Source: a virus. Taken from it: a DNA stretch of 64,000 bases. Below, piece by piece: positions 42,392 to 62,289 of the stretch. Location: IMG/VR virus record IMGVR_UViG_3300045988_124082. One strand, given 5' to 3'. The position numbers and the translations under genes are program-made. Every line of letters starts with the position of its first letter. Within the stretch, counting starts at the first letter, position 1. The notes under the pieces are model-generated. The model was not told the origin of the DNA and searched no databases. It was given only the letters and a program-made list of their open reading frames with translations.

Positions 42392-42412
42392 CAAAATAGA
42401 AAGGAAATTAAG

Positions 42413-42944: not shown

Positions 42945-43266
42945 AGAAACGAGAAGAAAAGTACACTTTGGAGATTGTCATGTAGGCGATGTTTTTGGAA
43001 TAGATAAAGATAGTCCTTATGTACGTAGAAAAAACAGCTTATATGATCTTGAACCATCAGATGTATTAAAGGCAAAAGTTATATATGTAGACAAAGAAGA
43101 TTCCTCCATTCGCATAAAGGCTTATGTAAATAATGAAGAGACTCCAAGATTTTCAGGTTGGCTTTACTCTTTGGTAAACAATTCAGGAATATTACTACAT
43201 AGGTCAGATTTGTTTATTGAGGACAATCTCAGATTCTTGTCAAAGAGAAAGAATAACTACTGGTAA
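42934..43266 (+). CDS. C-tail-tagged small protein 6 (family B)
   Basis: GTG start. KVHFGDCHVGDVF. Ends ..KRKNNYW*. Confidence 0.65.
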   Translation: MQSRETRRKVHFGDCHVGDVFGIDKDSPYVRRKNSLYDLEPSDVLKAKVIYVDKEDSSIRIKAYVNNEETPRFSGWLYSLVNNSGILLHRSDLFIEDNLRFLSKRKNNYW

Positions 43267-43280
43267 AGAGAGGTGTAAGG

Positions 43281-43598
43281 ATGGAAGAGAAAAGAAAAGT
43301 ATGCTTCGATGATTGCGAAGTTGGCATGTTTTTTAGGATCGATAAAGACTGTCCATGGATGTATGACAATGAGTGGATGGATGGTTTTGATACATTGACA
43401 AACGCAGATGAGTTAAAAGTTAAAATTATCGATAAAGATGCTGATGATAGCAGTGTTGAGATAGAACTTTGGGCAGATGGTCAAAAGACACATATAACAG
43501 ATTGGCTCTATCAGTTTGAAGACGATCCAGAAGACAGAATTGGAAATAACCTTGAGTTTATATTAAAGAGGAAAAATAGAAAAAATAACTATTGGTGA
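43281..43598 (+). CDS. C-tail-tagged small protein 7 (family B)
   Basis: KVCFDDCEVGMFF. Ends ..NRKNNYW*. Confidence 0.7.
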   Translation: MEEKRKVCFDDCEVGMFFRIDKDCPWMYDNEWMDGFDTLTNADELKVKIIDKDADDSSVEIELWADGQKTHITDWLYQFEDDPEDRIGNNLEFILKRKNRKNNYW

Positions 43599-43608
43599 GG
43601 TGGTGTAA

Positions 43609-43869
43609 ATGGATAATGAATTAAAAATTGGAATGAAGTTCTTAGAAGTAAAAACCGGAATTGTCTGGAAGCTTACAGATATGAATTTTATACAAGAAGG
43701 GTTTTATATAATAGACAAATCATTGTGTTTTCAAGCTGTACGTATAAATACAGACGAGGATGATGTATGGAGAAGTACATCGTCAATGATACCTAAGACA
43801 ATGCTCGAAAGAAGATTGAAAAAAGGCGAATGGAAACAAATAAACAATAGAAAAAACAATTACTATTGA
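43609..43869 (+). CDS. C-tail-tagged small protein 8 (family D)
   Basis: LKIGMKFLEVKTGIVWKLT. Ends ..NRKNNYY*. Confidence 0.7.
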   Translation: MDNELKIGMKFLEVKTGIVWKLTDMNFIQEGFYIIDKSLCFQAVRINTDEDDVWRSTSSMIPKTMLERRLKKGEWKQINNRKNNYY

Positions 43870-43891
43870 TTGATAGTAGAAAGGACATATT

Positions 43892-45025
43892 ATGGAGGAT
43901 TTAAGATTAGTAACAACAGAAGAATTTAATGGGGTTGATTGCAACTTTTACAAGGCAGATAGTAACATGTGGATGACAAGAGGACAGATTGGTAAAGCTT
44001 TAGGGTATCACAATCCAAGGATTGCAATCGGGAAAATACATACTGCACATAGAGATAGACTTGATCCACTTTCAGTTGATACCAATTTAGTGTCTACTGA
44101 TGGAAAAGAATATTCTACTTATATATATAATGAAAGAGGCATCTTTGAAATCTGTAGATGGTCAAGACAACCAAAAGCAAATGAATTTATGGATTGGGTA
44201 TGGGACATTATAGAAGCATATAGACGTGGAGAATTCCAGAGAAAGCCTAGGGAAACAGCCATTACACCTGTTGAGAAATTCTTAGATGGAATGCAGAATA
44301 TGTTCTTAGAAATGAGAGAAGAGAACAAAATATTCAAAGATACTGTGTTGAAGATTTTAGAATCTCAGCAAGGACAGGAAGTACAAAAACCTGTTGAAAA
44401 ACTTGAAGCTCAAGAGAAAACTGTTAATCAAGTAAAAACAAAACCAGCTGTTAAGTCAGTTGTTAAGATTGAAAACCCTAGATTAGACACTTGGAAGTTC
44501 GAAATTGGTGCTAAAGCAGCCTATATTGTTTTTAATGGAAATGAATATAAAACAAAAGGAAAAGTATTCTCAGCATGTTATTCAAAAATGAAGAATGTGT
44601 ATGGAATTTGTTGGTCACAGGAAAATAAAGAATACAGGAGAGCTTTCGGATTAGAATCTCAGAGAGGTAGATTAAGTACTTTAGATGTTGTATTCAATGA
44701 TGAAAATTTGAAAGACCTGTTTGACAGTATTCTTGATGGAATATATGAAAACACAAAAAGAAAAGCTATAAAGAGAAATACGGGAACCAATCCAGAAAAA
44801 GATTGGCAATATTATAAAGAAAAGATTCAAAAACTTTGTGAGCAAACAGGCAACAAAAGTTTAGGCGGAAGCTCTATTTACTCAGGAATCATTAGAAAGA
44901 TGGATGTAGATTGGAGCAAGTATGAAACAAACAAAAAGAAAACTGAATTAGTTAAAAAATATCCAGAGTTGTTTGCAGAGTTCTCTAAGACAGCGGATAA
45001 ATATTTAGAGGAGAAGTTAAAATGA
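43892..45025 (+). CDS. Bro-N domain protein
   Basis: N-terminal EEFNGVDCNFYKADSNMWMTRGQIGKALGYHNPRIAIGKIHTAHRDRL follows the Bro-N pattern. The C-terminal 250 aa are unassigned. Confidence 0.6.
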   Translation: MEDLRLVTTEEFNGVDCNFYKADSNMWMTRGQIGKALGYHNPRIAIGKIHTAHRDRLDPLSVDTNLVSTDGKEYSTYIYNERGIFEICRWSRQPKANEFMDWVWDIIEAYRRGEFQRKPRETAITPVEKFLDGMQNMFLEMREENKIFKDTVLKILESQQGQEVQKPVEKLEAQEKTVNQVKTKPAVKSVVKIENPRLDTWKFEIGAKAAYIVFNGNEYKTKGKVFSACYSKMKNVYGICWSQENKEYRRAFGLESQRGRLSTLDVVFNDENLKDLFDSILDGIYENTKRKAIKRNTGTNPEKDWQYYKEKIQKLCEQTGNKSLGGSSIYSGIIRKMDVDWSKYETNKKKTELVKKYPELFAEFSKTADKYLEEKLK

Positions 45026-45141
45026 GTATTAAAATTTTAGGACTTCGTCAAGATTGCTACAAAGTAATCATTGATGGAGTCCTTTTTAAATTCCCAACAG
45101 AACAAGAGTTTTTGGAATTCTTAGAGGAGATTGAGATATGA
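45022..45141 (+). CDS. small ORF (39 aa), translationally coupled on both sides
   Basis: Own translation MSIKILGLRQDCYKVIIDGVLFKFPTEQEFLEFLEEIEI*. ATGA overlaps at both ends. Confidence 0.4.
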   Translation: MSIKILGLRQDCYKVIIDGVLFKFPTEQEFLEFLEEIEI

Positions 45142-45416
45142 GTTTTAGATTTGAAGTAGGTCAAGAGCTGGAATTACACAATAACTTGACGGATATGAAA
45201 GTTTACATGAGATCGGGAACGGTTGTTCGTATCTTAAGTAGAAAAACAAGAATGGATCATACACAAGGGGTTGAGAGAAATCGTTACAAGATTGCATATG
45301 AATTTCATACAAGCTTTTTGGAGATTGGAGATGGTTGTTACCACTGTGGAAAAGACTTTATCTGGGAAGAAGATTTAATTAGAGCTGTCGGTCAACGGAA
45401 GAATAATTATTATTAA
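45138..45416 (+). CDS. C-tail-tagged small protein 9 (singleton family E)
   Basis: Ends ..QRKNNYY*. The body is unlike families A-D. Confidence 0.65.
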   Translation: MSFRFEVGQELELHNNLTDMKVYMRSGTVVRILSRKTRMDHTQGVERNRYKIAYEFHTSFLEIGDGCYHCGKDFIWEEDLIRAVGQRKNNYY

Positions 45417-45428
45417 GAGGTGATTAAA

Positions 45429-45698
45429 ATGTGGAAAGTCGGAGATAGAGTCGTAATTATTCAAGATGCTAGAAGAAATTTAGAATCCTTTGTAGGTTTC
45501 AAGGGAACGGTTAACTTTGCAAGTAGAGATGAGATAAGTGTAGTTTTTGACAAATATGTAAACGGTCATGACTTACTAGGGGATTGTAAAAAAGGTTATG
45601 GATGGTTTTTGTCCTCAGACGGAGAGAACGAAAACGAAGCCGAAGCAAATGGAATGAGAGTCAAGAAAATTAACAACAGAAAAAATAATTATTGGTAG
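45429..45698 (+). CDS. C-tail-tagged small protein 10 (family A)
   Basis: MWKVGDRVVI behind GAGGTG. Ends ..NRKNNYW*. Confidence 0.7.
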   Translation: MWKVGDRVVIIQDARRNLESFVGFKGTVNFASRDEISVVFDKYVNGHDLLGDCKKGYGWFLSSDGENENEAEANGMRVKKINNRKNNYW

Positions 45699-45707
45699 GT
45701 GATAGGA

Positions 45708-45980
45708 ATGTGGGAAAAAGGTACAAGAGTTAGAATTATAAAATCAAACAGACTTATGACGCAAGTTGGTATCATGGGCACTGTGGTTTACATACATAAG
45801 GATGGAAATGATCGTTTTATAGTAGAGTTTGACGAACCTATGGATGGGAATTATATGACTACTTTTTGTGATTGCAAACCGAAGTGTTGGTGGTGGTTTG
45901 ATAATGTTCCGGGGAGAGTTGTTGAAACAGATGGTATAACAATTGAAAAAATAGGAAAAAGAAAAAACAATTATTACTAA
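45708..45980 (+). CDS. C-tail-tagged small protein 11 (family A)
   Basis: MWEKGTRVRII. Ends ..KRKNNYY*. Confidence 0.7.
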   Translation: MWEKGTRVRIIKSNRLMTQVGIMGTVVYIHKDGNDRFIVEFDEPMDGNYMTTFCDCKPKCWWWFDNVPGRVVETDGITIEKIGKRKNNYY

Positions 45981-45992
45981 GGCGGTGAGAAC

Positions 45993-46340
45993 ATGTGGGA
46001 AATTGGAGATAGAGTGGCTGTTACAGACTTAGGCAAAGTCTCTCAAGAGAATTATGGAATTGAAATAAAGATTGGATACAAGGGAACTATTATCAACTTT
46101 TTAAAGATTGATGTCCCATGGAATTCTGATGAGATAATTAAATTCTTAGTAGAGTTTGACGAACCCATGGATGGACATGATGGAAATGATTTCGGTAAAA
46201 TAAGTGGGAAATCGGGACACTGTTGGTGGATGCGTGGAAACCAAGATAGTAATTTAATCAAATGGCGAGATAGCCGGGATTGTGAAGCACCATTAATATG
46301 TAAGAAAATCATGAAGAAAAGGAAAAACAATTTTTACTAA
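45993..46340 (+). CDS. C-tail-tagged small protein 12 (family A)
   Basis: MWEIGDRVAV..VEFDEPMDGHDG..GHCWW. Ends ..KRKNNFY*. Confidence 0.7.
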   Translation: MWEIGDRVAVTDLGKVSQENYGIEIKIGYKGTIINFLKIDVPWNSDEIIKFLVEFDEPMDGHDGNDFGKISGKSGHCWWMRGNQDSNLIKWRDSRDCEAPLICKKIMKKRKNNFY

Positions 46341-48901: not shown

Positions 48902-50626
48902 ATGGAAGAAAGAAAATTTAAAACAAATGACTACGTGGTAGTAAAGAATTGGGATGAATTGGTTGAAGAATATGGATTGGTTGATCCCGAATCTGTTAGA
49001 GAACAGATGAGGAATGATGAGGATTGTTATTGGTCAGAAGAAGAGATTAATGAATACAATCCAGAAATCATTAATGTTCCATGGGGAGCAAGAAAAGCAA
49101 TGATTGATGAACTTGTAACTATGGGATTGATGAAGGTCAAAGAATATGGAGAAGATGGAAGTGTCCAGCTGGAAAGCGATACTTACATTGACAGTATTAT
49201 CCCAGAAGAGATTTTACAGCCTGTAAGCGAAGATGAGGTTAAGAATTATATCTTTTGGCTTAATAAAAAAGATGATGATTTTGTAATGCAGGACTACGAT
49301 TTTGCTCAAGCAAATGGATTATTAACTTATGTAGGATTGGTCAATGGAAGTATTGATTTTATCGGAGGAAACAAAGGTAATGAATTAATTGCTTATTTCT
49401 ATGCAGCATCAATTTTAAGATCAATTGATTTTAATGAGGGAGTTACAGAATATCTAAGCCATTGTCATGAAGTTAGTGTTCATACATTTGACCATTTTTA
49501 CACTGACAGAAAATCACATTTGCAGATTGTAGCGATAAAAGATGTTTCTGAGGATGGAGAAGAAGAACTTGTTAATATGTGGACAGAAAGAGGCTGGGAA
49601 GAAGTTGAATTCCACAACGATAAAGTTTTTAAGGTGTTTACTCATCCTGAGCAGAAAGGAACCACAATTTTCTTAAATGGAGAAAAAGAAGATTATAAAA
49701 AAGACTTTGAAGCTTATGAACTGATCATGCAGATTGTTAGCCATGTTTATGGAGATACAATGCAGGATGTTTTAGAAGTTGTTAGCAATAGAGATAGATC
49801 AGAAGCTATGAATATGATCCGTGATATTTTCTCAGAAGCGGATAAGCAGTATGTGAAAATCAAAAACAAAATTAATATTGAAAACTTCCTAAAGGTTGCA
49901 TCTAAAGGTCAGCAGAAACATTTAGAACGAGAAGTTCAGAATAATCAGGACAGAGTTAATAGCTATAAAGATAATCTCAGACACTCTCTTAAAACATTAA
50001 GAGAGTCACAAGAAAGACTCTTCGGATATTTACATATGAAAGATGATTCCCAGTTCAATGAAGTAAGAGAAATGTTAAACATGATGGGTGATGATTTAAG
50101 TGATTTTAGGTGTAATCCTAGCGGTGATTGGTTTAGCTTTGCAATCGTTCAGCCATTGTTATATTGGGATGATGATATTTACGAAAGAAACTTTGATGAT
50201 GAATACTTTGAAGAAGAGGCTGAATATGAAAAGACGAAAAAAGTATTCGACAAAATCTTTAAGACAAGAGAATACACTTTGTATCTACAGCAAGCAATAA
50301 TGATTGACTTGGTCAATAATAAACCAGTTGCAATGAGAGATTATAATTATACAAATGATATGTATATTCCTAATCCACATTTCCATGAGTTTAACTGTTG
50401 GGGAGCAAATGAAGCAAATTTAATTGAAGCGATTTCAAACAGAGATTATATGTCAATTTTCAATCTTGTTAGATCAGCTGTCGCTGGAATTTCTTTATAT
50501 GATACTTCTGTAGTAGGAGCTTTCTTTAATTATTGTGAAGACAGATTTACAAATAAAAAATGTCTTAAAGTTCCAGGAAGAGAAGAATTTATTTCATTCA
50601 AAGAAGCAAGAGCATTGGAGGATTAA
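48902..50626 (+). CDS. 574-aa hypothetical protein, first gene of the JAB/E1-like operon
   Basis: The stop lies 3 nt before the JAB gene. Near the C-terminus, IPNPHFHEFNCWGANE loosely resembles an E2 HPN..C active-site region (weak). Confidence 0.5.
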   Translation: MEERKFKTNDYVVVKNWDELVEEYGLVDPESVREQMRNDEDCYWSEEEINEYNPEIINVPWGARKAMIDELVTMGLMKVKEYGEDGSVQLESDTYIDSIIPEEILQPVSEDEVKNYIFWLNKKDDDFVMQDYDFAQANGLLTYVGLVNGSIDFIGGNKGNELIAYFYAASILRSIDFNEGVTEYLSHCHEVSVHTFDHFYTDRKSHLQIVAIKDVSEDGEEELVNMWTERGWEEVEFHNDKVFKVFTHPEQKGTTIFLNGEKEDYKKDFEAYELIMQIVSHVYGDTMQDVLEVVSNRDRSEAMNMIRDIFSEADKQYVKIKNKINIENFLKVASKGQQKHLEREVQNNQDRVNSYKDNLRHSLKTLRESQERLFGYLHMKDDSQFNEVREMLNMMGDDLSDFRCNPSGDWFSFAIVQPLLYWDDDIYERNFDDEYFEEEAEYEKTKKVFDKIFKTREYTLYLQQAIMIDLVNNKPVAMRDYNYTNDMYIPNPHFHEFNCWGANEANLIEAISNRDYMSIFNLVRSAVAGISLYDTSVVGAFFNYCEDRFTNKKCLKVPGREEFISFKEARALED

Positions 50627-50629
50627 AAA

Positions 50630-51595
50630 ATGAGAAAAATTAGAATTGAAGAATTAGATGCACAGAGATTAGTACAAGAAGTGATAGCGAAAGCTATCAC
50701 TTCTATTGGTTTAACCCCAGAAAAATTACAGATGGAAATTAATCCTAATGTAAAACTTAAAGAAGAAGAGAAAATTGAGATTGCTTTTTCAGAAATGGCA
50801 GAAAAGAAAATGTATTATCTCATTCACGAATGTGAAAAAGAAATTGGTTGGCATGGACTTGTCAGTCGAAGCGAAAATGGATTCTATGTAGAAGACATTA
50901 TTGTATTCCCACAGGAAGTTACAGGAGCTACTGTAACATCAGATGATGAGCTATATCCAACTTGGATGCTTAGTCAGCCAGATGAGATTTACAATAAGAT
51001 TAGATTTCATGGACATTCACATGTAAATATGGCAACAAGTCCAAGTGGTGTAGATGATACGTATCAGGAGCAGATTATTCAACAGTTTATGTCTAGTCCA
51101 CTTGATGAAAATAATTTTTACATATTCGGCATTTTCAACAAAAAGGGAAGCTATTGGTTAAATATTTATGACATTTATAACAATAAATTTTATGAGACAG
51201 ATGATATTAGTTATGTTTTTTATCAGTCAGATGAACAGGCATGGGCTAAAGAACAGATTAAAGAGAATGTAAAAGAAGAAGTAGCTGTAAAAACAAGTGG
51301 ATATTATTCTAATGGATATGGTTATAGAGGCGGTGGATACGGAACAGAAGAGCTGTATGATACTTGGAAAAAGAACTATGATAAAAACAAAGGCAAAGAG
51401 AAGCCAAAAAAAGATGAAGCAGAGTTGCGAAAAGAATTAAGTGGAGCAATTATTGCAGATTTAACACCTCCAAAATGGCATAGTAAATGGAGTAAATGTT
51501 TACAGAGGATGATTAGCTGTGATGAAAGTCTTGATGATTTAATTGAAGAGTATTGTATTACTTATCCAGATTATAGTGGAACAAAAAAGAAATAG
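50630..51595 (+). CDS. JAB/MPN+ (JAMM) metallopeptidase with long C-terminal extension
   Basis: Complete JAMM signature: upstream Glu (IHECEKEIGWHG), then HSH-VNMATSP-S-GV-D, which is HxHx7Sx2D. Confidence 0.7.
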   Translation: MRKIRIEELDAQRLVQEVIAKAITSIGLTPEKLQMEINPNVKLKEEEKIEIAFSEMAEKKMYYLIHECEKEIGWHGLVSRSENGFYVEDIIVFPQEVTGATVTSDDELYPTWMLSQPDEIYNKIRFHGHSHVNMATSPSGVDDTYQEQIIQQFMSSPLDENNFYIFGIFNKKGSYWLNIYDIYNNKFYETDDISYVFYQSDEQAWAKEQIKENVKEEVAVKTSGYYSNGYGYRGGGYGTEELYDTWKKNYDKNKGKEKPKKDEAELRKELSGAIIADLTPPKWHSKWSKCLQRMISCDESLDDLIEEYCITYPDYSGTKKK

Positions 51596-51607
51596 AGGAG
51601 GATGATT

Positions 51608-52285
51608 ATGAATACAAGTAAAGTTTTAGAATTTTTTGATGCACAGACATTAGTTAAAAAACCAGTTCATGTAATTGGATGTGGAGCAATTGGCTCAAAT
51701 GTCGCAGAACAGCTTACAAGATTAGGAGTCTCAGTGATTCATCTCTGGGATTACGATCATGTTGAGCCTAAAAATGTAACTAATCAGATGTTCTTTGATG
51801 GGGATATCGGAAAAGCTAAGGTAGATGCAATTGAAAATTTGTGTAAGTCAATTAATCCACAGATTAAAATAATCAAACATGAAAGAGGGATTGATGATCC
51901 ATATATTCTTACAGGATATGTATTCTTATGTGTAGATAATATTGAGCTTAGAAAGAAAATCGTAGAGGCCAATAAGTTAAATCCAAACTGTATTGCGTTC
52001 TTTGATTTTAGAATGAGACTTACAGATGCACAGCATTATTTTGCTGATTGTTCAGTTAAAGAACAGGTTGAAAACTTAATTGGAACCATGAATTTTACCC
52101 ATGAAGAAGCGGCTGCAGCAACTCCTACAAGTGCTTGTGGAGTGGAATTAAGTGTATGCTATACAGTTAAGAATATTGTTTGTTATGGAATTGCAAATTT
52201 TGTTAACTTTTGCCTAGGGAATGAACCAAAACAGATGATTATTACAGATATGAAGACAATGGATGTGACAGTATTCCCTATGTAA
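51608..52285 (+). CDS. ThiF/MoeB/E1-like adenylyltransferase (minimal, about 225 aa)
   Basis: VHVIGCGAIGSNVAEQLTRLGV (GxGxxG Rossmann) followed by LWDYDHVEPKNVTNQMF (DxDxVxxxNxxRQ-like). Confidence 0.7.
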   Translation: MNTSKVLEFFDAQTLVKKPVHVIGCGAIGSNVAEQLTRLGVSVIHLWDYDHVEPKNVTNQMFFDGDIGKAKVDAIENLCKSINPQIKIIKHERGIDDPYILTGYVFLCVDNIELRKKIVEANKLNPNCIAFFDFRMRLTDAQHYFADCSVKEQVENLIGTMNFTHEEAAAATPTSACGVELSVCYTVKNIVCYGIANFVNFCLGNEPKQMIITDMKTMDVTVFPM

Positions 52286-52288
52286 GAG

Positions 52289-52567
52289 GTGATGATCTTG
52301 ATAGAAGAAAAATATAAAGCGGTACCTAAAAATTATAAGGGGATTGTAAGACTTAAGCCAACAATAGCACGTTTCCGCCCTTATTACCATGCGTATGTTA
52401 AGTTGGAGGAGGGCTATCACTATACGGGTAATCCAGATCACACAGTATACGTTGAGTTGTACAAGACTTATCAAGATTTAACAAACAATGGTAGGTGTAT
52501 AAGGGAAGGCCTTATAGAAGAAAGAAGCTTATATGTTCCAAGAGAACGTAAGAATAATTATTGGTAG
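52289..52567 (+). CDS. C-tail-tagged small protein 13 (family C, VPKGYKG..GNPDH)
   Basis: Starts 3 nt after the E1-like stop (GTG; TTG 52298 is also possible). Ends ..ERKNNYW*. Confidence 0.65.
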   Translation: MMILIEEKYKAVPKNYKGIVRLKPTIARFRPYYHAYVKLEEGYHYTGNPDHTVYVELYKTYQDLTNNGRCIREGLIEERSLYVPRERKNNYW

Positions 52568-52575
52568 GTGAGAAT

Positions 52576-52848
52576 ATGTGGGAAAAAGGTACAAGAGTTA
52601 AGATAATAGGGGGAGCAAAAATCGGCTTAATGGGGACAGTGGTTGTTAAGTGCACAGAAACCCCTGTCAATGACATTAGAGATCGCTTCTTAGTAGAGTT
52701 TGACGAATCCATGGGTGGACATAGTGGAAATGGAGCTTATGAAGGAAAGCGGGGACATTGTTGGTGGTTTGATTATTGTTTAGAAAAGGTTACTATCACA
52801 GATGGCATAAGCATTGAGCAAGTCAAAAGGAAAAATAATTTTTACTAG
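52576..52848 (+). CDS. C-tail-tagged small protein 14 (family A)
   Basis: MWEKGTRVKII..VEFDESMGGHSG..GHCWW. Ends ..KRKNNFY*. Confidence 0.7.
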   Translation: MWEKGTRVKIIGGAKIGLMGTVVVKCTETPVNDIRDRFLVEFDESMGGHSGNGAYEGKRGHCWWFDYCLEKVTITDGISIEQVKRKNNFY

Positions 52849-52861
52849 GGGGGGTGATTAG

Positions 52862-53077
52862 ATGTGGGAAGTTGGTGACAGAGTAGTAGTTAGTAGTGCA
52901 TTTAGGCCTAAAGTGAAAGGGACAGTCATTGCTATAGATGCGGAATCTACAATGCCTGTATTGGTTAAAATAGGTGGAATAGGAACAGGTATGTGGTTCT
53001 ATGAAAATGGTGATGATTTAGTTTGGAGTGACATTACTTGCACACGAGTGAAAAAGAGGAAAAACAATTATTATTGA
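52862..53077 (+). CDS. C-tail-tagged small protein 15 (family A, short)
   Basis: MWEVGDRVVV, 71 aa. Ends ..KRKNNYY*. Confidence 0.7.
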   Translation: MWEVGDRVVVSSAFRPKVKGTVIAIDAESTMPVLVKIGGIGTGMWFYENGDDLVWSDITCTRVKKRKNNYY

Positions 53078-53093
53078 GAAAGGATGATGACAG

Positions 53094-53381
53094 GTGTTTA
53101 AGGTTGGAGATAGGATCGTACTAACAGAAGAAAGCCGTCAAAGCTGCAATATATTTCATGAACATCCGGGAGATACTGCAACGGTTATTGGAGTTTCGAA
53201 AGTATCAAGTAGGTCTGATTATGAATGTGTTTTAGAATTTGATAGACATATTGGTGGACATGATGGGTTAACCGATGCCACAGGCAAGAACGGTCATTGT
53301 GTTATCTATTATTTTGATTCAACACAGTGGGATAAGTATTTTAGGAAAATCCAAAGTAAACGTAAGAATAATTATTATTAA
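53094..53381 (+). CDS. C-tail-tagged small protein 16 (family A)
   Basis: GTG start. MFKVGDRIVL..EFDRHIGGHDG..GHCVIY. Ends ..KRKNNYY*. Confidence 0.65.
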   Translation: MFKVGDRIVLTEESRQSCNIFHEHPGDTATVIGVSKVSSRSDYECVLEFDRHIGGHDGLTDATGKNGHCVIYYFDSTQWDKYFRKIQSKRKNNYY

Positions 53382-53396
53382 GAAAGAGGTGATCGT

Positions 53397-53713
53397 ATGC
53401 CAGAGGATGTAAAGTACCGTCCAGTTCCTAAAGGGTATACAGGTGTTTTTAGGCTAAGAGAAGATACGACGTCCTTAGCCAATGAGTTTTATGGAGCATG
53501 GGGCATTATAGACGACAAATTTTTAATCGATGAAGATTATTATAATGAAGAAAATGAATTTAAGGGAGATCCCGATCATGTAATTCGAGTAAGTTTTTAT
53601 CCTAGCCTTTTAGATCTGCAAAGAGGTGAAATCTTATTAGAGAAGTAGGAAGAGTGTCTGGGACAGAAAAGTATTGTTATATTCCTTTCAAAAGAAAAAA
53701 TAATTACTATTAA
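53397..53713 (+). pseudogene. C-tail-tagged family C member 17, frame-disrupted (or frameshift-dependent)
   Basis: Frame 0 stops at 53648 (..RGEILLEK*). The family-like continuation ..LIREVGRVSGTEKYCYIPFKRKNNYY* is open in the -1 frame from about 53630 to 53713. Confidence 0.55.
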
Positions 53714-53728
53714 GAAAGAGGTAATCAA

Positions 53729-54043
53729 ATGGAAAATAATGGTATATATCCTCCAGTACCTAAGGGATACAAGGGTGTTTTTAGAGTTAGACCTGATATG
53801 ATAGGATCAGATAATATGTTCTATGAAGCATATGGTATTACAGGAAAAGGTATTATAGAAGACATTGATTATTTAGAAGGCCAAGGAGAATTTACAGGAA
53901 ATCCACATCATATAATTAAAGCCATTTTTTATCAAACCTATGAAGACTTAAAGAACAGAGAATGTATGATACAAGGAAGGCCTGTTAAAATAAAAGAACA
54001 CTTACTTTACCCCGTGTCAAACAAGAAGAACAATTACTGGTAG
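53729..54043 (+). CDS. C-tail-tagged small protein 18 (family C)
   Basis: YPPVPKGYKGVFRV..GNPHH. Ends ..NKKNNYW*. Confidence 0.7.
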   Translation: MENNGIYPPVPKGYKGVFRVRPDMIGSDNMFYEAYGITGKGIIEDIDYLEGQGEFTGNPHHIIKAIFYQTYEDLKNRECMIQGRPVKIKEHLLYPVSNKKNNYW

Positions 54044-54053
54044 GTGATTTAAG

Positions 54054-54323
54054 ATGATAGACGCAAAAGATATTAAAGAGGGTATGAAAATTAAGTATAA
54101 TGGTTGGGAATGGACTATAACAAAAGTGTTTGCAAAATATAATAATGTCTTGGATCTTCGGAATGATTGTATTAAAAAAATCATTGATCAAGATAGTTCA
54201 TTGATTTGGATTGAAGCATCGAAGAGACGCTTTGTGCCTGAATCTATGACTATGGAGTGGTTCTTTAAAGAACTGAAATATGGAACAATAAAGATTTTAA
54301 ATCGTAAAAATAATTATTATTGA
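54054..54323 (+). CDS. C-tail-tagged small protein 19 (family D)
   Basis: DIKEGMKIKYNGWEWTITK. Ends ..NRKNNYY*. Confidence 0.7.
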   Translation: MIDAKDIKEGMKIKYNGWEWTITKVFAKYNNVLDLRNDCIKKIIDQDSSLIWIEASKRRFVPESMTMEWFFKELKYGTIKILNRKNNYY

Positions 54324-54329
54324 GGTGAT

Positions 54330-54623
54330 GTGATGTATTTAGAAGACATTAAAGTTGGTCAGAAAGTGAACTATCGAGGTCATTCCTACATAATAACTAA
54401 AAATGTTGTAAAGTATCGGGGAATAATTAGACCTTATTATTCTACATATTCGTATATCAAGGAAAGTACAAATTGTCATAGATCACGAATGTATTTTCGA
54501 AGAGTAGAAAATAAAAATGAACCGATTGATGGATTTTGGTTATTATATGACGAGATTGAAGAAAAAATGGATCGAGGGCTTATTAAATTTTTGAACATGT
54601 CAAAGAAAAATAATTATTATTAA
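54330..54623 (+). CDS. C-tail-tagged small protein 20 (family D)
   Basis: DIKVGQKVNYRGHSYIITK. Ends ..SKKNNYY*. Its stop is 15 nt before the RT start. Confidence 0.7.
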   Translation: MMYLEDIKVGQKVNYRGHSYIITKNVVKYRGIIRPYYSTYSYIKESTNCHRSRMYFRRVENKNEPIDGFWLLYDEIEEKMDRGLIKFLNMSKKNNYY

Positions 54624-54638
54624 AGGGGGTGCCACAAA

Positions 54639-55940
54639 GTGAATGGAATCAATAAAAGGAAATTAGAACTGTTTATGGATGATCAGCTATGGAGACAAAA
54701 TATTACACATCAGCAAAGCAAAGGTGTACATAGAGATGTATTAAGAATTGTGTGTGATCCAGAATACAAAGCACGGCTTTTAGGAATGATCTGGGATGGT
54801 AATTACAAAATTGCACCTCCGTATGTAGTAGAAATTCCTAAAGACAATGGAAAAGTAAGAGAAGTGTATGTTAATCAGCCAATTGACAGATTTGTTATGA
54901 CACAAATCAATTATGTTTATATGCAATTATATGGTCATATGATTCATCCAAGATGTGTGTCTTATCAGAAAGGAATTGGAGTTAAAAATATCGTAGATGA
55001 TATTTGTATGGAGCTTAAGAAACATCAAGGAGCTGTCGGGTATAAGGTAGACATTAGTAAGTATTTTGACAGTGTAAGCCGTGAGGTCCTTAATGAAATG
55101 ATTGATAAAATTGATACAGGAAGTCCTATTGATCAGATCGTAAGAGATTATTATATGGATGATTGTATCATTGATCAGAAAGGAAATGTTATTGAGAAAT
55201 ACAAAAGTATGACTCAGGGTTGTGCAGTGTCTACATTCTTTGCCAATTGTGTTTTAAAAGATGTTGATGAAGAGTTAAGCAAGATGGATATTATTTATTA
55301 CAGATATTCAGATGATATCTTGATGGTTGGTAAGGATGCAGATAAGGCTTTGAAGATGTTGGGAGAAATGTTAGAAACGAAAGGACTTACATTAAATCCT
55401 AAAAAGGTAGAAACAGTCAGTACAGATCAATGGTTTACATTCTTAGGAGTGCGAATTAATGGACAGAAAAGAAGTTTTTCTGAGAAGAGCTTAAAGGAAT
55501 TTCAGAAACATATTAGAGAATATGTAAATAAGAAAGCAGGAATTGGTAGCGTAAAAGTTGCAATCAGACAAATTAATAAATATCTGTATTTGAATTTCTT
55601 AAGGAATCCTAATGAGTTTGGTTGGGCTGAGTATTTCTTTAGTATTGTGAATGTCGAAGATGATATTAAGACATTAGATATGTGGATTAAAGATACACTC
55701 AGAGGTTTGTATACTGGTAAGAGAGGAAAAGAACAGATAGGTGGACTAGGTGTAAATAAAGTAACTAATGAATGTGGAGTATTAAGAGGGAAGGGCAACA
55801 AAGTAAGTTCAAATTTACGTAAAACAAGAAGTGATAAAGACATTTTAGAAGAAGCAGGATATATCAGTATGAATGAAATGTATCATCAGTTTAGATATAG
55901 CAAAGAATTGTACAGGGCTTCATTGACGGCTTTATCTTAA
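54639..55940 (+). CDS. reverse transcriptase (stand-alone, no endonuclease or maturase domain recognised)
   Basis: RT motifs in order: IPKDNGKVREV, YKVDISKYFDSV, QGCAVSTFFANCVL, YYRYSDDILMVG (YxDD), LTLNPKKVE, FTFLGVRI. GTG start behind GGGGGTG. Confidence 0.85.
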   Translation: MNGINKRKLELFMDDQLWRQNITHQQSKGVHRDVLRIVCDPEYKARLLGMIWDGNYKIAPPYVVEIPKDNGKVREVYVNQPIDRFVMTQINYVYMQLYGHMIHPRCVSYQKGIGVKNIVDDICMELKKHQGAVGYKVDISKYFDSVSREVLNEMIDKIDTGSPIDQIVRDYYMDDCIIDQKGNVIEKYKSMTQGCAVSTFFANCVLKDVDEELSKMDIIYYRYSDDILMVGKDADKALKMLGEMLETKGLTLNPKKVETVSTDQWFTFLGVRINGQKRSFSEKSLKEFQKHIREYVNKKAGIGSVKVAIRQINKYLYLNFLRNPNEFGWAEYFFSIVNVEDDIKTLDMWIKDTLRGLYTGKRGKEQIGGLGVNKVTNECGVLRGKGNKVSSNLRKTRSDKDILEEAGYISMNEMYHQFRYSKELYRASLTALS

Positions 55941-56459
55941 GTGTAACCTAACACGAGGTACTTATGTGAAATGTTATAAGTCAAATCAGATCCCTAGGAT
56001 ACACGGGTGATTCCATGCATGGTTGATAACCAGCATTCCATCAACCCGTTCCTCCCTGGATCTTATCATCATAAAGGAAATTTAGAAACGTGTTATTAAC
56101 ATGAACATAAGAAAGTTACTATGGACGTTGTATGTGAGACAATGGAATTACATATAAGGCGCGTTGAAGCTGCAGGATGACTGGCAATACATTGACCAAG
56201 TCATCCCTGCAGCTCAACCGCTTTATAATCATAAAAGAATAAAGGAACATAGCATGATTGTGAGCATACAAACAAGCTAACATGGGCTAAACATACGAGA
56301 CGTTGAATCATACATAATAAGGGCACAGCTGCCTTATGCAGCGGGAAATTAGTCTCCTCGACAATAATTTCACCGCTGCCACAGGCGTGCGTGCCCTTAT
56401 TAATCATAAACCAATAGAGAAAACATGTCGCCAATGTAGAGTATGTAGAAAGGAAAATC
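55941..56459 (+). ncRNA. hairpin array 1: three long variable hairpins, each followed by conserved ATCATAAA
   Basis: Hairpins at 55988-56063, 56153-56227 and 56317-56400 (75-84 nt, imperfect, unrelated sequences). ATCATAAA at 56068, 56228 and 56403. RNA status and strand are inferred, not shown. Confidence 0.45.
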
Positions 56460-56996
56460 ATGAAAAGTTTATTTAAAGTATTGTATGAGCTGTCACAAGG
56501 AAACACCTTAATGATTAATAGTTGCATGTCTTTTAGAATGACAACTGATCTATACAAAAGACAAGTGAGATTTAAGAAGTATAAGGTTGTTGATCAAGGA
56601 AGCGTAGTAAGTGATGTGACATTGTGTAGTGGAGAGGTTATTGAGTATGATGACTTAATAAAGGAAGGAGATTTAGATTTTATATTACCAATTGAATTAA
56701 ACGAAAAAGAAAATCCATATGAGGTTATTGAATACCTGTATGGATTATTTTATTGTTCAGTTCCTGATAGATCTGCTGTTCAAAAGAAACAGAATTTTAT
56801 AGCAAAAGGATTAAATGATTTTGGGGCAAATGATTTTACAGGAATGAGAAGAAGTGAAATTCAGCCATTGTTAGAACTCTATGTGTTACTCGCTGGAATG
56901 AAAGGATGGATCACTTGGAAAGATGATAAGTTGTTCTTTTGGAAAGGTGAGCATAAGAGTTTGTATATATATAGAAAATGGATTTTAGGTTATTAG
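56460..56996 (+). CDS. hypothetical protein
   Basis: 178-aa ORF with RBS AGAAAGGAAAA. No motif recognised. Confidence 0.55.
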   Translation: MKSLFKVLYELSQGNTLMINSCMSFRMTTDLYKRQVRFKKYKVVDQGSVVSDVTLCSGEVIEYDDLIKEGDLDFILPIELNEKENPYEVIEYLYGLFYCSVPDRSAVQKKQNFIAKGLNDFGANDFTGMRRSEIQPLLELYVLLAGMKGWITWKDDKLFFWKGEHKSLYIYRKWILGY

Positions 56997-57013
56997 GAAA
57001 GGAAGAACGTAAA

Positions 57014-57775
57014 ATGAATGTAGAAAAGAGTTTGGAAAAAGCAGGAGTAGACACAAAGAAATATCCTTCATTAGCTATGCAGAATATTTTAGGATATCAA
57101 GGGAAAGCGTTTGCAGAAAATTCATACCTGTATAGAAAGATCATGGGAGATGGGCATGTGTTTAATCCTTATATACACAGAAGATGGCTTCCATATCAGT
57201 TTATGAATGCTGTCCATTGGACAAGACAGTATTATGCAGAGACTATTGGTTATGTAAAGATGCTTGAAAAAGAATTGATGCGTGGCAATAATGTAGATAA
57301 TTGGAAATATATGTACGATAAATTTGGAAAAGAGCTTAATGCTTTATATACACTCTCAAAAAGAGATAAAAAAGCGTATAAAGAAAGATGGGCTGCTTTT
57401 GGAAGATTAGAAATTTTGAAATATTTCTCTCAAGGGTTTGATTGTGTAGGGATAAATCAAAATACATTTTTGGAAATGAAAAATTTATTAGCGGATGAAA
57501 GATTTGAAGCTGAACGATATTGGCGATATCCTAATTGTTTATTGTATAAACGGCCACAATTTAGAAAAGATTTGGTAACAACAACTTTCCATTCAGGAAT
57601 TTATTTTACATTAAAACATATTATGATGTTTGATTATGAAAAATTACATATGTCTTCATCCCAAAAAGAAAGCCTAAAACGGATTAGAGAAGATTTAATT
57701 AACGGAGATTTCAATTATGAGCAGGCTTTTACAATTATTGAAGATTACGTAGCAAGATATTACAATCCAAGATAG
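57014..57775 (+). CDS. hypothetical protein
   Basis: Start moved to MNVEKSLEK behind AGGAAAGGAAG. 253 aa, Trp/Tyr-rich. Confidence 0.55.
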   Translation: MNVEKSLEKAGVDTKKYPSLAMQNILGYQGKAFAENSYLYRKIMGDGHVFNPYIHRRWLPYQFMNAVHWTRQYYAETIGYVKMLEKELMRGNNVDNWKYMYDKFGKELNALYTLSKRDKKAYKERWAAFGRLEILKYFSQGFDCVGINQNTFLEMKNLLADERFEAERYWRYPNCLLYKRPQFRKDLVTTTFHSGIYFTLKHIMMFDYEKLHMSSSQKESLKRIREDLINGDFNYEQAFTIIEDYVARYYNPR

Positions 57776-57788
57776 AGAGGGGAATTAT

Positions 57789-58286
57789 ATGCCAGAAGAA
57801 GTAAAAGAATTAACTATTAAAGAAGCAGATGAGTTTATTAAAAAGAAAGTAATCGGAGTTCTCATAAAAGCAGATGTAACAATCATAGTAAATGAATTAG
57901 AAGCTATTTATGGAGATTCGTTAGCAAATGGAACGGTTGGAGATTCGTTTTATATTTATAACTGTCCAGAAAATTATGATGAATCAGATTATGAAGAGCT
58001 TGAGTATATTGATTATGATGATATGTATGAAGATGATATTCGTGAAGAGAGAGCTGAAGCAGGAGATTTTAATCTTAAAGTATATAAGTGGTTCATTGTT
58101 GATCCAAGATTTACAGAATTATTAAAAGATTTGGGCGAGATAGTTGCTCCAGATATTAACCTTTGGGGATGTTGTGAAGACATTGAAGACGCAAGCGAAG
58201 CAACTGTAATTGAAGAATTTTTTGAAAGAATGCAGATTCTGTATGGACAAAAGAATGCAATTATTACAGAAAAGCTGAGTGCTTAA
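57789..58286 (+). CDS. highly acidic protein (DNA-mimic / anti-restriction candidate)
   Basis: 165 aa with ..NYDESDYEELEYIDYDDMYEDDIREERAEAGDF.. Composition only. Confidence 0.35.
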   Translation: MPEEVKELTIKEADEFIKKKVIGVLIKADVTIIVNELEAIYGDSLANGTVGDSFYIYNCPENYDESDYEELEYIDYDDMYEDDIREERAEAGDFNLKVYKWFIVDPRFTELLKDLGEIVAPDINLWGCCEDIEDASEATVIEEFFERMQILYGQKNAIITEKLSA

Positions 58287-58742
58287 ACCAACAAAAGGGA
58301 GATGTACCCTTTGTAGAAATACTTATCATAAACCATCGAAGAAGGAGGATCTTCAGAACCCTCCGCATTGATTACGTTAAACATCACTTCGTAATGATTT
58401 AACAGCATCAACTGCGAGAGGAGTTCATGAAGATCCTCCTTCTTGAATCATAAATACATAGAGGAATACATCAAAGATAAGTTGTTCTACATTTTTTGCA
58501 AGAGATATACTTGCTGATTTAATGAATTGTGTTTGAATCACTCACATAATCGGGAGAAAGGAGGCATAATCTCATCTCCTCCACTGGCAAGCCAGGGAGG
58601 ACTTGATGAGATTACATTCCGCTGCGGCGTCATTGTGCCTCCATTCTCCTGATCATGTTTGATCATAAACCAATAGAGAAATATATCACCTCACAATGAG
58701 TTAAATCTGTAACTATTAATTTACATAGAAAAGGAGAAACAG
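58287..58742 (+). ncRNA. hairpin array 2: one short and two very long hairpins, each followed within ~12 nt by ATCATAAA
   Basis: Hairpins at 58294-58312, 58336-58446 (111 nt) and 58549-58653 (105 nt). ATCATAAA at 58325, 58447 and 58662. The last motif, GATCATAAACCAATAGAGAAA, nearly repeats 56402-56422. Confidence 0.45.
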
Positions 58743-59312
58743 ATGAAAGCGATTTTTAAAGGAGAAAAAGTTGTAAGAACTAAATTAACATTAGACACTG
58801 GACTTGAAAGACTGGAAGGATCGGATGTTAGCTATTTTGTGAGACGACCTAAGCTGACACATGAAGTAAGTGAAGAAAAGGGTGGAATCATTTTAGAAAA
58901 GGATCTTTCTTTTAATAAAATCTTACTCTTAAAAGATGCTAATGAAGTGACAGTTGATGAATTTACATTTGTATTATCAGGCATTATTGATTACAACTTA
59001 GATGAAGAATGTGTAGTTTTTTACACAGACGCTTGTTGTTCAATTGAAGATACAGATGGGCAGAACAAAATCGAAGCCTATCATAAACTTTTGGATGCAT
59101 ATGAAAAGCAGGTAGGAACGAAAGAAAGTCAAGAGGAAGAATGCGATTGTGCTTACTGTAATGGAGATTACGTTTGTGCTTTTTGTAGAGATGATGATGA
59201 ATCAGAATTAGATGATGAAGAGGACATCGGAAAGAAAGCAATGGATAATCTAGAAGATCTAAATAAAATTCTTGCAGAGTTCTTCGGGGATATTCCGGGA
59301 TTCAAGTGTTAG
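58743..59312 (+). CDS. hypothetical protein with Cys cluster and acidic tail
   Basis: 189 aa with CDCAYCNGDYVCAFCRDDDESELDDEED. Confidence 0.5.
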   Translation: MKAIFKGEKVVRTKLTLDTGLERLEGSDVSYFVRRPKLTHEVSEEKGGIILEKDLSFNKILLLKDANEVTVDEFTFVLSGIIDYNLDEECVVFYTDACCSIEDTDGQNKIEAYHKLLDAYEKQVGTKESQEEECDCAYCNGDYVCAFCRDDDESELDDEEDIGKKAMDNLEDLNKILAEFFGDIPGFKC

Positions 59313-59397
59313 TTAAAGATTGATATTGAGAGAGACACTTCGTATGAGGTGTCTCTTTTAGTATATAGATTTTTTAGAAAGGAGATGAAAAAGGAAA

Positions 59398-60192
59398 ATG
59401 GCAACAGAGTTTGACAAACGAATGAAAGCTTATGAATGTGTCTCAAGACAGTACTTAACAAGAAGAGTACCAGTTGCAATTAGGGTAGATGGAAAGGCAT
59501 TTCATACATTCACTAGAGGGTTTCAGAAACCATTTGATGAAGTGCTTAGCAACACAATGCAAGCCACAATGATGAAAATGTGTAGACAGATTCAGGGTTG
59601 TGTGTTTGCTTACACACAGAGTGATGAAATTACATTTATTCTTATCGATTATCAGAAGCTAAATTCTGATGGCTGGTTTAACTACCGTACTGATAAGATG
59701 TGTAGCATTGCAGCGAGTATGGCTACTATGGAGTTCAATAAGGCTTTTAGTGCTTTTGTTTATGGATTTAAGGTAAACAAGGGAGAAGACATATCAAGCG
59801 AAGATATGGAAGTGCTTAAGGCCTATGAGAAATCTAAGGAACGTGGAGCTATGTTTGATGCTAGAGCGTTCTCAATTCCAAAAGAAGAAGTCACAAACTT
59901 AATCTATTGGAGACAACAGGATGCTATGAGAAATGCAGTTCAGATGGTTGGACAAGCATTTTATTCTCACAAAGAACTTCAGGGTGTTAATTGTGAAATG
60001 CTTAAAGAAATGTTACTGGCTGATAAGGGAATTGAATGGGATAAGATTCCTGTGAAATACCAGAGAGGCAGTTGTTGTGTCAAGGTTGATGGTGAATGGA
60101 CTATTGACAATAACATTTCTATCTTCAGAGGTAGTGACAGAGAGCAAATTGATAAGCTTGTGTTTGTTGAGAGTGAAGAGGATCAGGAGTGA
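59398..60192 (+). CDS. Thg1-like protein (tRNA-His guanylyltransferase family, 3'-5' nucleotidyl polymerase)
   Basis: N-terminal VPVAIRVDGKAFHTFTRGFQKPFDEVLSNTM..CVFAYTQSDEITFIL matches the Thg1 family core (R.DG+.F..FT..F.KP.D...YxQSDEIS). Confidence 0.75.
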   Translation: MATEFDKRMKAYECVSRQYLTRRVPVAIRVDGKAFHTFTRGFQKPFDEVLSNTMQATMMKMCRQIQGCVFAYTQSDEITFILIDYQKLNSDGWFNYRTDKMCSIAASMATMEFNKAFSAFVYGFKVNKGEDISSEDMEVLKAYEKSKERGAMFDARAFSIPKEEVTNLIYWRQQDAMRNAVQMVGQAFYSHKELQGVNCEMLKEMLLADKGIEWDKIPVKYQRGSCCVKVDGEWTIDNNISIFRGSDREQIDKLVFVESEEDQE

Positions 60193-60214
60193 TCAGGAAG
60201 GAGAAATATGATTA

Positions 60215-60448
60215 GTGATTTATAAACATGAGAAAAGAACTGTAACGATAGAGGAAATTGAAATTAAATCATGCCCTTTTTGTGGTTCAGATGAAGTAAA
60301 ACCGATTTACTACAAAGAGCAATGGGGATGGTCAAATGCCGAAAACTTTGTTAAATGTTGCAGATGCGGAGCAAAAGGCCCTTTGATTTCAAGAGTTGAA
60401 GGTGACCATACCATTGAATCAATAAAAGCTTGGAATAGAAGAAACTAA
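60215..60448 (+). CDS. Lar-family restriction-alleviation-like zinc-ribbon protein
   Basis: CPFCGSDEV..VKCCRCGAKGP..IKAWNRRN matches the Lar family pattern. Confidence 0.6.
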   Translation: MIYKHEKRTVTIEEIEIKSCPFCGSDEVKPIYYKEQWGWSNAENFVKCCRCGAKGPLISRVEGDHTIESIKAWNRRN

Positions 60449-60464
60449 TCAGGAAGGAGGATAA

Positions 60465-61217
60465 ATGGGAGTAGAGACAAAAGAAATCCCATTCTATGAT
60501 GACACTTTGTTAGGTGTTAAAGATGAGGATGGTAAAGTTTGGTTGGCTGTTAGAAAAGCTTGTTTGGATATTGGGTTGTCAAATGAACAGGCTAAAAGAC
60601 AAATTAGAAATATTAGGAATTCCGAACTCTTTAAATCCAAGTGGGGCAAATTCGCCCCAGTTCAAAATGAGGGCGGAAGACAGGTGACTAGAGAAGTAAT
60701 TTGCATCCAAGAAAAATTTGTACCAATGTGGTTAGCTCAAATTACTCTTACGCCTAAGATGAAAAAAGAAAACCCAGAAGCGGTAAGCAAGTTACTCAGG
60801 TATCAGCTTGAAGCTGCTGATGTATTACATACGGCCTTCTATAAAACAGATAGACAGAAAGAGCTGTTACATGAGTCTTTAGGACTGGAAGGCAAAATTC
60901 TTAAAATGGAAGAGCAGATCGTAGCTTTTACAGAAACCATTAAAGAGCAAGCAGAAAGACTTGATAAAGTCATGGACAATATGACTATTGATACTAAAAA
61001 GCAGAGTCGTATTCAGAAAGCAGCAAAGGAAAGAGTAAGTGAATTACTTGGTGGAGCTCATTCAGGGCTTTATAAAGCTAAAGGTGCTTTGTATTTTGCA
61101 AATCTGTGGCATCAGTTTAGAGAACAGTTTGAATGTGGAACTTATAAAGATCTTAGTCCAAACGATTTTGAAGATGCAATTGATTTCATTGAGAGTTGGA
61201 CATATGTAGAAAGGTAG
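60465..61217 (+). CDS. phage antirepressor-like protein (P22 AR N-terminal type, ORF6C-like C-terminus)
   Basis: IPFYDDTLLGVKDEDGKVWLAVRKACLDIGLS..EKFVPMWLAQI, with a coiled-coil C-terminal half. Confidence 0.6.
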   Translation: MGVETKEIPFYDDTLLGVKDEDGKVWLAVRKACLDIGLSNEQAKRQIRNIRNSELFKSKWGKFAPVQNEGGRQVTREVICIQEKFVPMWLAQITLTPKMKKENPEAVSKLLRYQLEAADVLHTAFYKTDRQKELLHESLGLEGKILKMEEQIVAFTETIKEQAERLDKVMDNMTIDTKKQSRIQKAAKERVSELLGGAHSGLYKAKGALYFANLWHQFREQFECGTYKDLSPNDFEDAIDFIESWTYVER

Positions 61218-62139: not shown

Positions 62140-62289
62140 GGGGACATAGCTTAATAGGTAAAGCAAAACTACATTCTTCCATAAAGAACTTAAAACTAAA
62201 ATTTTCATATTAAATATAAACATTTTGTACCTCCCTATTGTAATAAAATAACACTTATATTTATGTGGGTTCGAATCCCACTGTCCCCA
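62140..62289 (+). ncRNA. interrupted tRNA-like gene (canonical acceptor, D and T arms; about 75-nt AT-rich insert in place of the anticodon region)
   Basis: GGGGACA..TGTCCCC-A acceptor, GCTT-AATAGGTA-AAGC D arm, GTGGG-TTCGAAT-CCCAC T arm. The only anticodon-like hairpin is TTCT-TCCATAA-AGAA (CAT, with C33) at 62174-62188. Confidence 0.4.

Follow-up and report, generated by a model that had tools for sequence, protein, structure and literature searches.

The window, a stretch of 64,000 nucleotides of virus DNA (IMG/VR record IMGVR_UViG_3300045988_124082), contains an open reading frame (ORF) for a reverse transcriptase (RT) at positions 54639-55940 on the + strand. The ORF starts with GTG and encodes a protein of 433 aa. 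The original prediction called it an orphan phage RT with no recognisable context of a diversity-generating retroelement (DGR), a retron or a group II intron. Analysis of the ORF, PADLOC and Pfam searches and homologue clusters indicated that it is almost certainly a UG27 RT, a member of class 2 of the UG/Abi RTs, with the catalytic RYSDD intact. It is followed on the same strand by two accessory genes and by arrays of RNA hairpins, and the locus is a complete UG27 system in a large gut phage of about 115-134 kb. As the element is typical of a family already described and not a new kind of element, its novelty is low.

The RT protein carries QGCAVSTFFANCVL and YRYSDD, and it matched Pfam RVT_1 at 5.6e-21. 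All residues that were invariant among 40 aligned homologues were kept, including Q193, G194 and R222-Y-S-D-D226. The ORF is thus real and its RT motifs, YSDD among them, are intact, as had been noted at first sight. The PADLOC model RT_UG27 gave 546.2 bits (E = 1.3e-164), with residues 5-431 of the protein aligned to positions 2-419 of the 420-position model. The next models were UG26 (174 bits, 9e-52) and UG17/DRT10 (102 bits, 9e-30), and further matches were to Drt9 (1.4e-28), the retron model RT_Ec107-like (9e-17) and Drt2 (1.9e-16). The UG27 profile outscored all other PADLOC RT groups. As expected for class 2, the RT stands alone, with RVT_1 as its sole Pfam match above threshold. Homologues were 402-445 aa long, and more than 1,100 protein clusters were related to the RT at E ≤ 1e-20. 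Tyr408 was invariant among the 40 aligned UG27 RTs. The extreme C-terminus of UG27 RTs, where DRT9 and DRT10 place their priming residue, was variable.

UG27 has been described as a class 2 UG/Abi group without enrichment in defence islands. The RT was reported from 1,447 dereplicated genomes of gut phages, where it is accompanied by two gene clusters of unknown function (337 and 346) and by a predicted non-coding RNA (ncRNA) that has "three long stem-loops" and separates the RT from the first accessory gene (Mestre et al., NAR 2022, PMC9226505). The window locus agrees with these systems (PMC9226505) in its RT family by hidden Markov model (HMM), its class 2 architecture without a fused domain, its phage location, its two downstream genes of unknown function (probably the published accessory pair), its stem-loop ncRNA between the RT and the first accessory gene, and its lack of a defence-island context. 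The RT is not an orphan, because the UG27 match, the accessory genes and the hairpin ncRNA are all present; the full-length PADLOC match and the family description of 2022 refute that label. The context is recognisable as well, as an RT, a hairpin RNA and two downstream genes make up the published UG27 context. The idea that this was a relative of the defence-associated RTs (DRTs) on the phage side was borne out by the PADLOC relatedness to UG/DRT models and by the phage location.

Two regions downstream of the RT, said from the start to hold structured hairpin units, were strongly folded. The minimum free energy was -164.6 kcal/mol for 55941-56460, compared with -113 for shuffled sequences (z = -9.1), and -162.3 kcal/mol for 58287-58742, compared with -95 (z = -10.6). 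They contain five tandem units on the RT strand in two arrays, three in 55941-56459 and two in 58287-58742. All units follow one plan: a closing stem formed by the unit's own flanks, a near-perfect hairpin of 60-105 nt, and a single-stranded motif directly 3' of the hairpin. The units also have a 5' WTCA element. The structure of the hairpin is conserved and its sequence is not. The 3' motif in the window reads ATCATAAA-N3-(A/T)TAGAG/TAAAG-RAA, and the family consensus is ATC(N)TAAA-N4-7-WAG-N2-4-ATGYG.

The units were delimited by folding, and all lie on the + strand. Unit 1 (55961-56111) is closed by the stem 55961-55967/56105-56111; its hairpin spans about 55987-56063, and its motif ATCATAAAGGAAATTTAGAAAC starts at 56068. 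The arms of this hairpin showed compensatory substitutions among near-identical phages. Unit 2 (56115-56273) has its hairpin at about 56162-56224 and its motif ATCATAAAAGAATAAAGGAAC from 56228. In the related locus L004, both arms at the base of this hairpin were replaced and the pairing was retained. Unit 3 (56291-56446) has the closing stem ACATAC/GTATGT, a hairpin at 56315-56402 and the motif ATCATAAACCAATAGAGAAAAC from 56403, with a compensatory G:C to A:U change at the base of the stem. In array 2, unit 4 (58313-58490) has the closing stem 58313-58327/58476-58490, a hairpin at 58339-58444 and the motif ATCATAAATACATAGAGGAATAC from 58447; a 17-nt perfect inverted repeat was detected in this unit. 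Unit 5 (58524-58706), also found as a member of repeat family D1, has its hairpin at about 58545-58650 and its motif ATCATAAACCAATAGAGAAAT from 58662. This motif equals that of unit 3 at 22 of 23 positions, and a compensatory C:G to U:A change was seen in the unit. Three long stem-loop units with covariation thus lie between the RT and the first accessory gene, as published for the UG27 ncRNA, and the suggestion that the downstream hairpins are the cognate ncRNA of the RT was right, in line with that published context. The locus differs from the published systems in no essential respect. Two points go beyond the main text of PMC9226505: the "three long stem-loops" represent a single modular unit present three times, which occurs in arrays of 3 to 8 or more, and this phage has a second array of two units after a lineage-specific third gene.

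The first accessory gene, d1 (56460-56996, +), encodes 178 aa. In most UG27 loci, tblastn homologues of it came after the RT or after the array. It had no Pfam, PHROG or PDB match, and with four homologues found for it the AlphaFold 2 model was unusable (predicted local distance difference test score, pLDDT, 40). The second, d2 (56978-57775, +), encodes 265 aa, and its homologues are kept next to d1. The d2 alignment contained an invariant motif, DGxVFNPYxHRRWLPxQ, in a segment predicted to be disordered. The AlphaFold 2 model of d2 was all-alpha (pLDDT 76); there was no Pfam, PHROG or PDB sequence match, and a Foldseek search of the PDB had no match with E < 2. Homologues of d1 and d2 followed the RT across loci with 33-99% RT identity. 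Their synteny suggests that they are probably the two gene clusters (337 and 346) that Mestre et al. linked to UG27. Between the two arrays lies d3 (57789-58286, +), which encodes an acidic protein of 165 aa, had no family match in Pfam or PHROG, and was found only in the loci L001-L010.

The same RT, at 95-99% identity and with the same neighbours, was present in IMG/VR viral contigs of 70-134 kb. In total, 113 loci were fetched from viral contigs, GenBank phage records, and species-representative bacterial and archaeal genomes. The hosts of integrated or binned copies were gut Clostridia and Bacteroidales, and the closest such copy was in a Christensenella metagenome-assembled genome (46% identity to the window RT). 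The viral contigs, the phage-like neighbourhood and the relatives in Bacteroides phage BS-TP1, Clostridia and Bacteroidales place the system in gut Firmicutes/Bacteroidetes phages. BS-TP1 is a cultured phage (L011, PQ571274.1, 79351-80613) whose UG27 RT is annotated as a "tail protein"; an unannotated 1.35-kb stretch after this RT holds about seven hairpin units.

Every other UG27 locus inspected had the same unit design, with 3 to 8 or more units at a spacing of 130-190 nt. In most cases the array directly followed the RT, and in some it came after d1 and d2. Counts in 92 loci from Firmicutes and Bacteroidetes gave 1.76 hairpins of -40 kcal/mol or lower per kb after the RT and 0.41 per kb before it. 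Motif-bearing hairpins occurred at 0.27 per kb after the RT, compared with 0.01 per kb in the opposite orientation and 0.04 per kb upstream. The 3' motif varied by clade (ATCGTAAA; ATCTAAA..TTTAG; ATATGAAAC..TATAG; ATCAAA..TAAAG.AATGTGCC), and a common core was kept. When the window was searched with an HMM of the 3' motif that used sequence alone and came from other clades, there was one weak match (E = 1.9), which fell on the motif of unit 5.

Nucleotide diversity (pi) was calculated for the phages with 95-99% identical RT. It was 0.124 at four-fold degenerate sites of the RT and 0.013 at RT codon positions 1 and 2. The parts of array 1 outside the hairpins had a pi of 0.019, so this scaffold is under as much constraint as the non-synonymous sites of the RT. 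The hairpins themselves had a pi of 0.070, and their changes were compensatory. The closing stems were examined by pairing the flanks of each unit with each other or with the flanks of different units. Across loci, own flanks paired at -16.1 kcal/mol and flanks of different units at -11.7 kcal/mol (p = 6e-11); within loci, the values were -16.6 and -13.5 kcal/mol (p = 2e-4). The closing stems are specific to their own unit.

A covariance model, R1, was seeded by orthologues of unit 3 only. R1 matched unit 2 (56133-56272, E = 2e-6) and unit 5 (E = 0.3) of the window, and it also recognised array units at six distant loci, in every case on the same strand as the RT. In the R1 alignment, 44 of 44 pairs changed on both sides, and 89% of the cells were paired, compared with 54% after shuffling and 35-44% when the partners were slid. 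Two other methods handled the units poorly. A MAFFT alignment of the paralogous units lost the structural register, and RNAalifold, applied to the intergenic region in full, gave a wrong fold for unit 1 owing to indels.

The specific closing stems bear on a retron origin, in which the RT would make branched multicopy single-stranded DNA from an msr-msd RNA closed by a1/a2 repeats. The original prediction had stated that retron-style flanking inverted repeats were missing. This was incorrect, as each unit is closed by its own pair, for example 55961-55967/56105-56111 and 58313-58327/58476-58490. In each unit, these a1/a2-like repeats enclose a long variable hairpin like that of an msd, which would become a DNA stem-loop, and the RT gave weak retron matches (the PADLOC RT_Ec107-like match and NCBIfam retron_St85, 71.6 bits). 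However, 71.6 bits is far below the 235-bit cut-off and the 546 bits of UG27, which puts the RT outside the retron clade, and neither conserved msr stem-loops nor a branching-G context was identified in the units. Retrons have a single msr-msd, upstream of the RT, whereas several tandem units lie downstream of each UG27 RT. Retrons also serve host defence, whereas UG27 is phage-encoded. No Rfam retron or other family match was found in 54000-59400. A retron was rejected on the RT scores and on the RNA being an array of units downstream of the RT, and we consider this origin very improbable.

Even less probable is that the gene is a degenerate or ORF-only group II maturase or a DGR RT and that the hairpins are unrelated elements such as terminators, small RNAs or an origin. 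By sequence, the nearest solved structures were group II intron RTs (7uim, 1.7e-30; a distant similarity), NCBIfam group_II_RT_mat (TIGR04416) gave 124 bits, and there was a faint GIIM match; the TIGR04416 score is below its 300-bit cut-off. Searches of 54000-59400 with Rfam, at the gathering threshold and at E ≤ 1, yielded only two chance miRNA-hairpin matches and no group II intron, in agreement with the absence of intron domains claimed earlier. The preceding gene ends at 54623, and the 15-nt gap before the RT confirmed the tight upstream packing. A group II intron was rejected on these grounds. For a DGR, the window as a whole and each of the two intergenic regions were compared by self-BLAST, which revealed no pair of template repeat and variable repeat, and the longest repeats had no A-biased mismatch spectra. 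A near-repeat of 55941-56460 or 58287-58742 differing only at adenines had been proposed as a check; run within the window, it found no near-repeat and no adenine-biased mismatches. In a scan that bears on the avd-like gene of DGRs, the genes neighbouring the RT had no Pfam match above threshold. A DGR was rejected accordingly within the window. In Firmicutes and Bacteroidetes loci at 33-99% RT identity, the RT is accompanied by hairpin arrays of matching orientation, which argues against hairpins unrelated to the RT. The earlier conclusion that the locus is neither a DGR, nor a group II intron, nor a classical retron was therefore upheld, for the DGR within the bounds of the window.

The hairpins of the arrays differ from ordinary ones in their pairs. 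G·U pairs made up 4.6% of the pairs in 94 array hairpins, compared with 14% in 715 control hairpins that were picked in the same way upstream of the RT. The reverse complement folded better than the sense strand in 73 of the 94 array hairpins, whereas the sense strand folded better in 585 of the 715 controls (Mann-Whitney p = 2e-28). Read as cDNA, the five hairpins of the window had DNA folds of -18 to -35 kcal/mol (z from -4.7 to -11.2). These values point to hairpins selected to pair on both strands, and to putative DNA hairpin products. A hairpin that is copied needs pairing on both strands, and a mere RNA boundary element does not; the few G·U pairs and the better fold of the complement thus favour the hairpin as a template over the hairpin as a boundary only. 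WTCA was present within 16 nt upstream of 43% of the array hairpins and 13% of the controls (p = 7e-9). As this 5' element resembles the AUC(A) that starts the 3' motif, the hairpin is bracketed by short direct repeats.

From these features, the best explanation of the whole, which we regard as reasonably probable, is a UG27 system with docking at each unit, copying of the hairpin, and DNA hairpin products. The RT would dock on the conserved 3' motif and the closing stem of each unit. Synthesis of cDNA would start at the docking site and copy the hairpin, giving one DNA hairpin per unit. The AUC(A)-like elements on its flanks may permit template jumping and so concatemers, comparable to the ACA microhomology of DRT2. 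For the step in which the hairpin serves as template, taken alone, the pairing pattern suggests a likelihood slightly better than even. A preprint of September 2026 ("Minerva", 10.64898/2026.09.22.753630) appears to describe such products: it uses the terms UG27 (74 times), hairpin (33), array (27), cDNA (24) and concatemer (2), has neither "tandem-repeat" nor "protein-primed", and contains "DNA hairpin" in its abstract. These term counts are indirect evidence in the same direction.

Characterised class 2 UG RTs use an ncRNA template framed by stem-loops that are anchored by the RT, and an A/A' microhomology resets the product. DRT10, DRT9 and DRT3a have a short template and DRT2 a long one. 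DRT2 (UG2) is likewise a class 2 UG RT with a cognate ncRNA. Its long template is bounded by ACA direct repeats, and jumping yields concatemeric cDNA; in UG27 units, AUC(A)-type elements flank the hairpin on either side. DRT2 differs in that its RT is only distantly similar (Drt2, 1.9e-16) and in that it has one ncRNA, upstream of the RT, and serves bacterial defence. The DRT2 template encodes an ORF, whereas the tandem UG27 units lie downstream of the RT, in phages, and have no evident coding potential.

The short templates suggest another explanation, in which the long hairpin and the closing stem would anchor the boundaries of the template and the RT would repeatedly copy a motif of about 8-10 nt, such as AUAAACCA/AUAGAGAA. 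The product would be tandem-repeat DNA, possibly protein-primed, and all units would make similar repeats. After the uncharacterised UG26, UG17/DRT10 (9e-30) and UG28/DRT9 (1.4e-28) are the closest UG groups by PADLOC score and hence the best-scoring characterised relatives, ahead of Drt2. In both systems, stem-loops enclose the template region, and it is their structure that counts and not their sequence. The 5' stem-loop of DRT10 needs structure and not sequence, and its short A-B-A' template lies between anchored stem-loops (DRT10 preprint), a layout mirrored by the variable hairpin beside a conserved single-stranded motif. Quasi-repeats also occur in the motif, as ATAAAAGA/ATAAAGGA in unit 2 and as AAAGCAAT, present twice in a Bacteroidetes unit. 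The self-similarity of the motif at lags 8 and 10 was above the column-permuted control (z ~4), but this signal is weak and confounded by subfamily structure. Copying a short motif leaves the avoidance of G·U pairs and the better fold of the complement unexplained. The same holds for stems of 30-45 bp, where DRT10 needs only a short boundary stem, and for several different hairpins per array. Furthermore, DRT10 and DRT9 produce tandem-repeat or homopolymer DNA, prime with a C-terminal Ser/Tyr, have SLATT effectors and occur in bacteria, whereas in UG27 the C-terminal priming region is not conserved, the accessory genes are unrelated and the hairpins are template-like. We consider a short template unlikely.

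Several points weigh against copying of the hairpin. The use of a template, the start site, the primer and the product were all deduced from sequence. The anatomy of the units also fits the model of a short template with the hairpins as boundaries only. A requirement for perfect double-stranded RNA, or a function at the DNA level, could also explain the strand symmetry of the hairpins. The alignment used for covariation was itself fitted to the covariance model, and the motif regular expression recognised units in 47 of the 92 loci.

For the biological role of the system, counter-defence or host takeover is the most likely guess, because of the phage location, the lack of association with defence islands, and neighbours such as Lar. 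A more detailed scenario is rather doubtful: early in infection, the phage RT would turn its array of different RNA hairpins into abundant DNA hairpins, possibly concatemers. These would act as decoys or inhibitors of host defences that sense nucleic acids, or as primers or structures for phage DNA metabolism, and d1 and d2 would load or process them.

Just after array 2 lies d4 (58743-59312, +), which encodes 189 aa with an acidic, Cys-rich C-terminal part. It was only 52-59% identical in most phages whose flanking genes were 95-100% identical, which makes the site a local hot spot where the gene has diverged or been replaced. A terminator-like hairpin with a T-run at 59323-59364 (+), found by consensus scan only, possibly ends a putative transcription unit that begins with the RT and takes in array 2 and d4. 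Promoter and terminator scans performed no better than on shuffled sequence.

Directly downstream of the UG27 locus, 59398-61217 (+) encodes a Thg1-like 3'-5' nucleotidyltransferase (Pfam Thg1, 9e-32; PHROG tRNA-His guanylyltransferase, 6e-78), a Lar restriction-alleviation protein (3e-08) and a P22 antirepressor-like protein. An SPFH protein is also encoded in the neighbourhood. These genes would suit an accessory or host-takeover region and prove nothing.

Upstream, 19 small ORFs of 71-145 aa lie in two blocks (40730-46340 and 52289-54623, +). Their sequences differ, some being paralogous between the blocks, and all end in (R/K)KNN(Y/F)(Y/W)-stop. The original prediction had noted that the RT is co-oriented with this tagged array. 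The ORFs ending in KNNYY/W are confined to this lineage and occurred in 0 of 10 other UG27 loci checked; they were rejected as components of the system and are regarded as neighbours. At the DNA level, their common ending is itself a conserved string, AAAAATAATTATTAT, and could thus act as a signal in the nucleic acid and not as a tag on the peptide. Between the two blocks are three genes (48902-52285, +). They encode a 574-aa protein, a 321-aa protein and a ThiF/E1-like adenylyltransferase (51602-52285; Pfam ThiF, 1e-21). The 321-aa protein, which had no Pfam match, contains a stretch, HGHSHx7Sx2D, that looks like a JAMM/JAB metalloprotease motif. The trio is directly upstream of the UG27 RT in L012, L013, L014 and L017, a clade at 47-51% identity. 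As the E1-like and JAB-like genes adjoin the RT only in that clade, they were rejected as parts of the UG27 system and are regarded as neighbours.

Other features lie elsewhere in the window. A full-length ROOL RNA (Rfam RF03087, 305 bits; 27357-27968, -) is embedded in a tRNA cluster (27025-28474, -) of seven or eight genes for Thr, Gln, Trp, Arg, Tyr and two Ser. A group I catalytic intron at 24072-24404 (-) scored 62.5 bits with Rfam RF00028 against a cut-off of 50 bits and presumably interrupts a phage gene. At 62140-62289 (+), the whole 71-position Rfam tRNA model matched over 150 nt (43.7 bits) with no ARAGORN call. This implies an insertion of about 80 nt, and the feature could be a tRNA that has an intron or is unusual in some other way. 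GC skew and AT skew both change sign at about 34000-36000, which suggests a switch of the genes from the - to the + strand at a divergent module junction. Long palindromes are present near this change, at 33326-33383 and 39607-39695.

UG27 is the one large UG/Abi group that resides in phages rather than in bacterial defence islands. What a phage gains from it is a question that concerns the family and not the window alone. The window provides a clean and complete example of UG27, with five units in two arrays. The modular and tandem ncRNA, the constraint on its scaffold, and the pairing of the hairpins on both strands are directly testable points, and experiments on UG27 are possible because Bacteroides phage BS-TP1 is a cultured relative. 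If DNA hairpins do serve the phage as decoys or primers, UG27 would be a retron-like device used for offence instead of defence.

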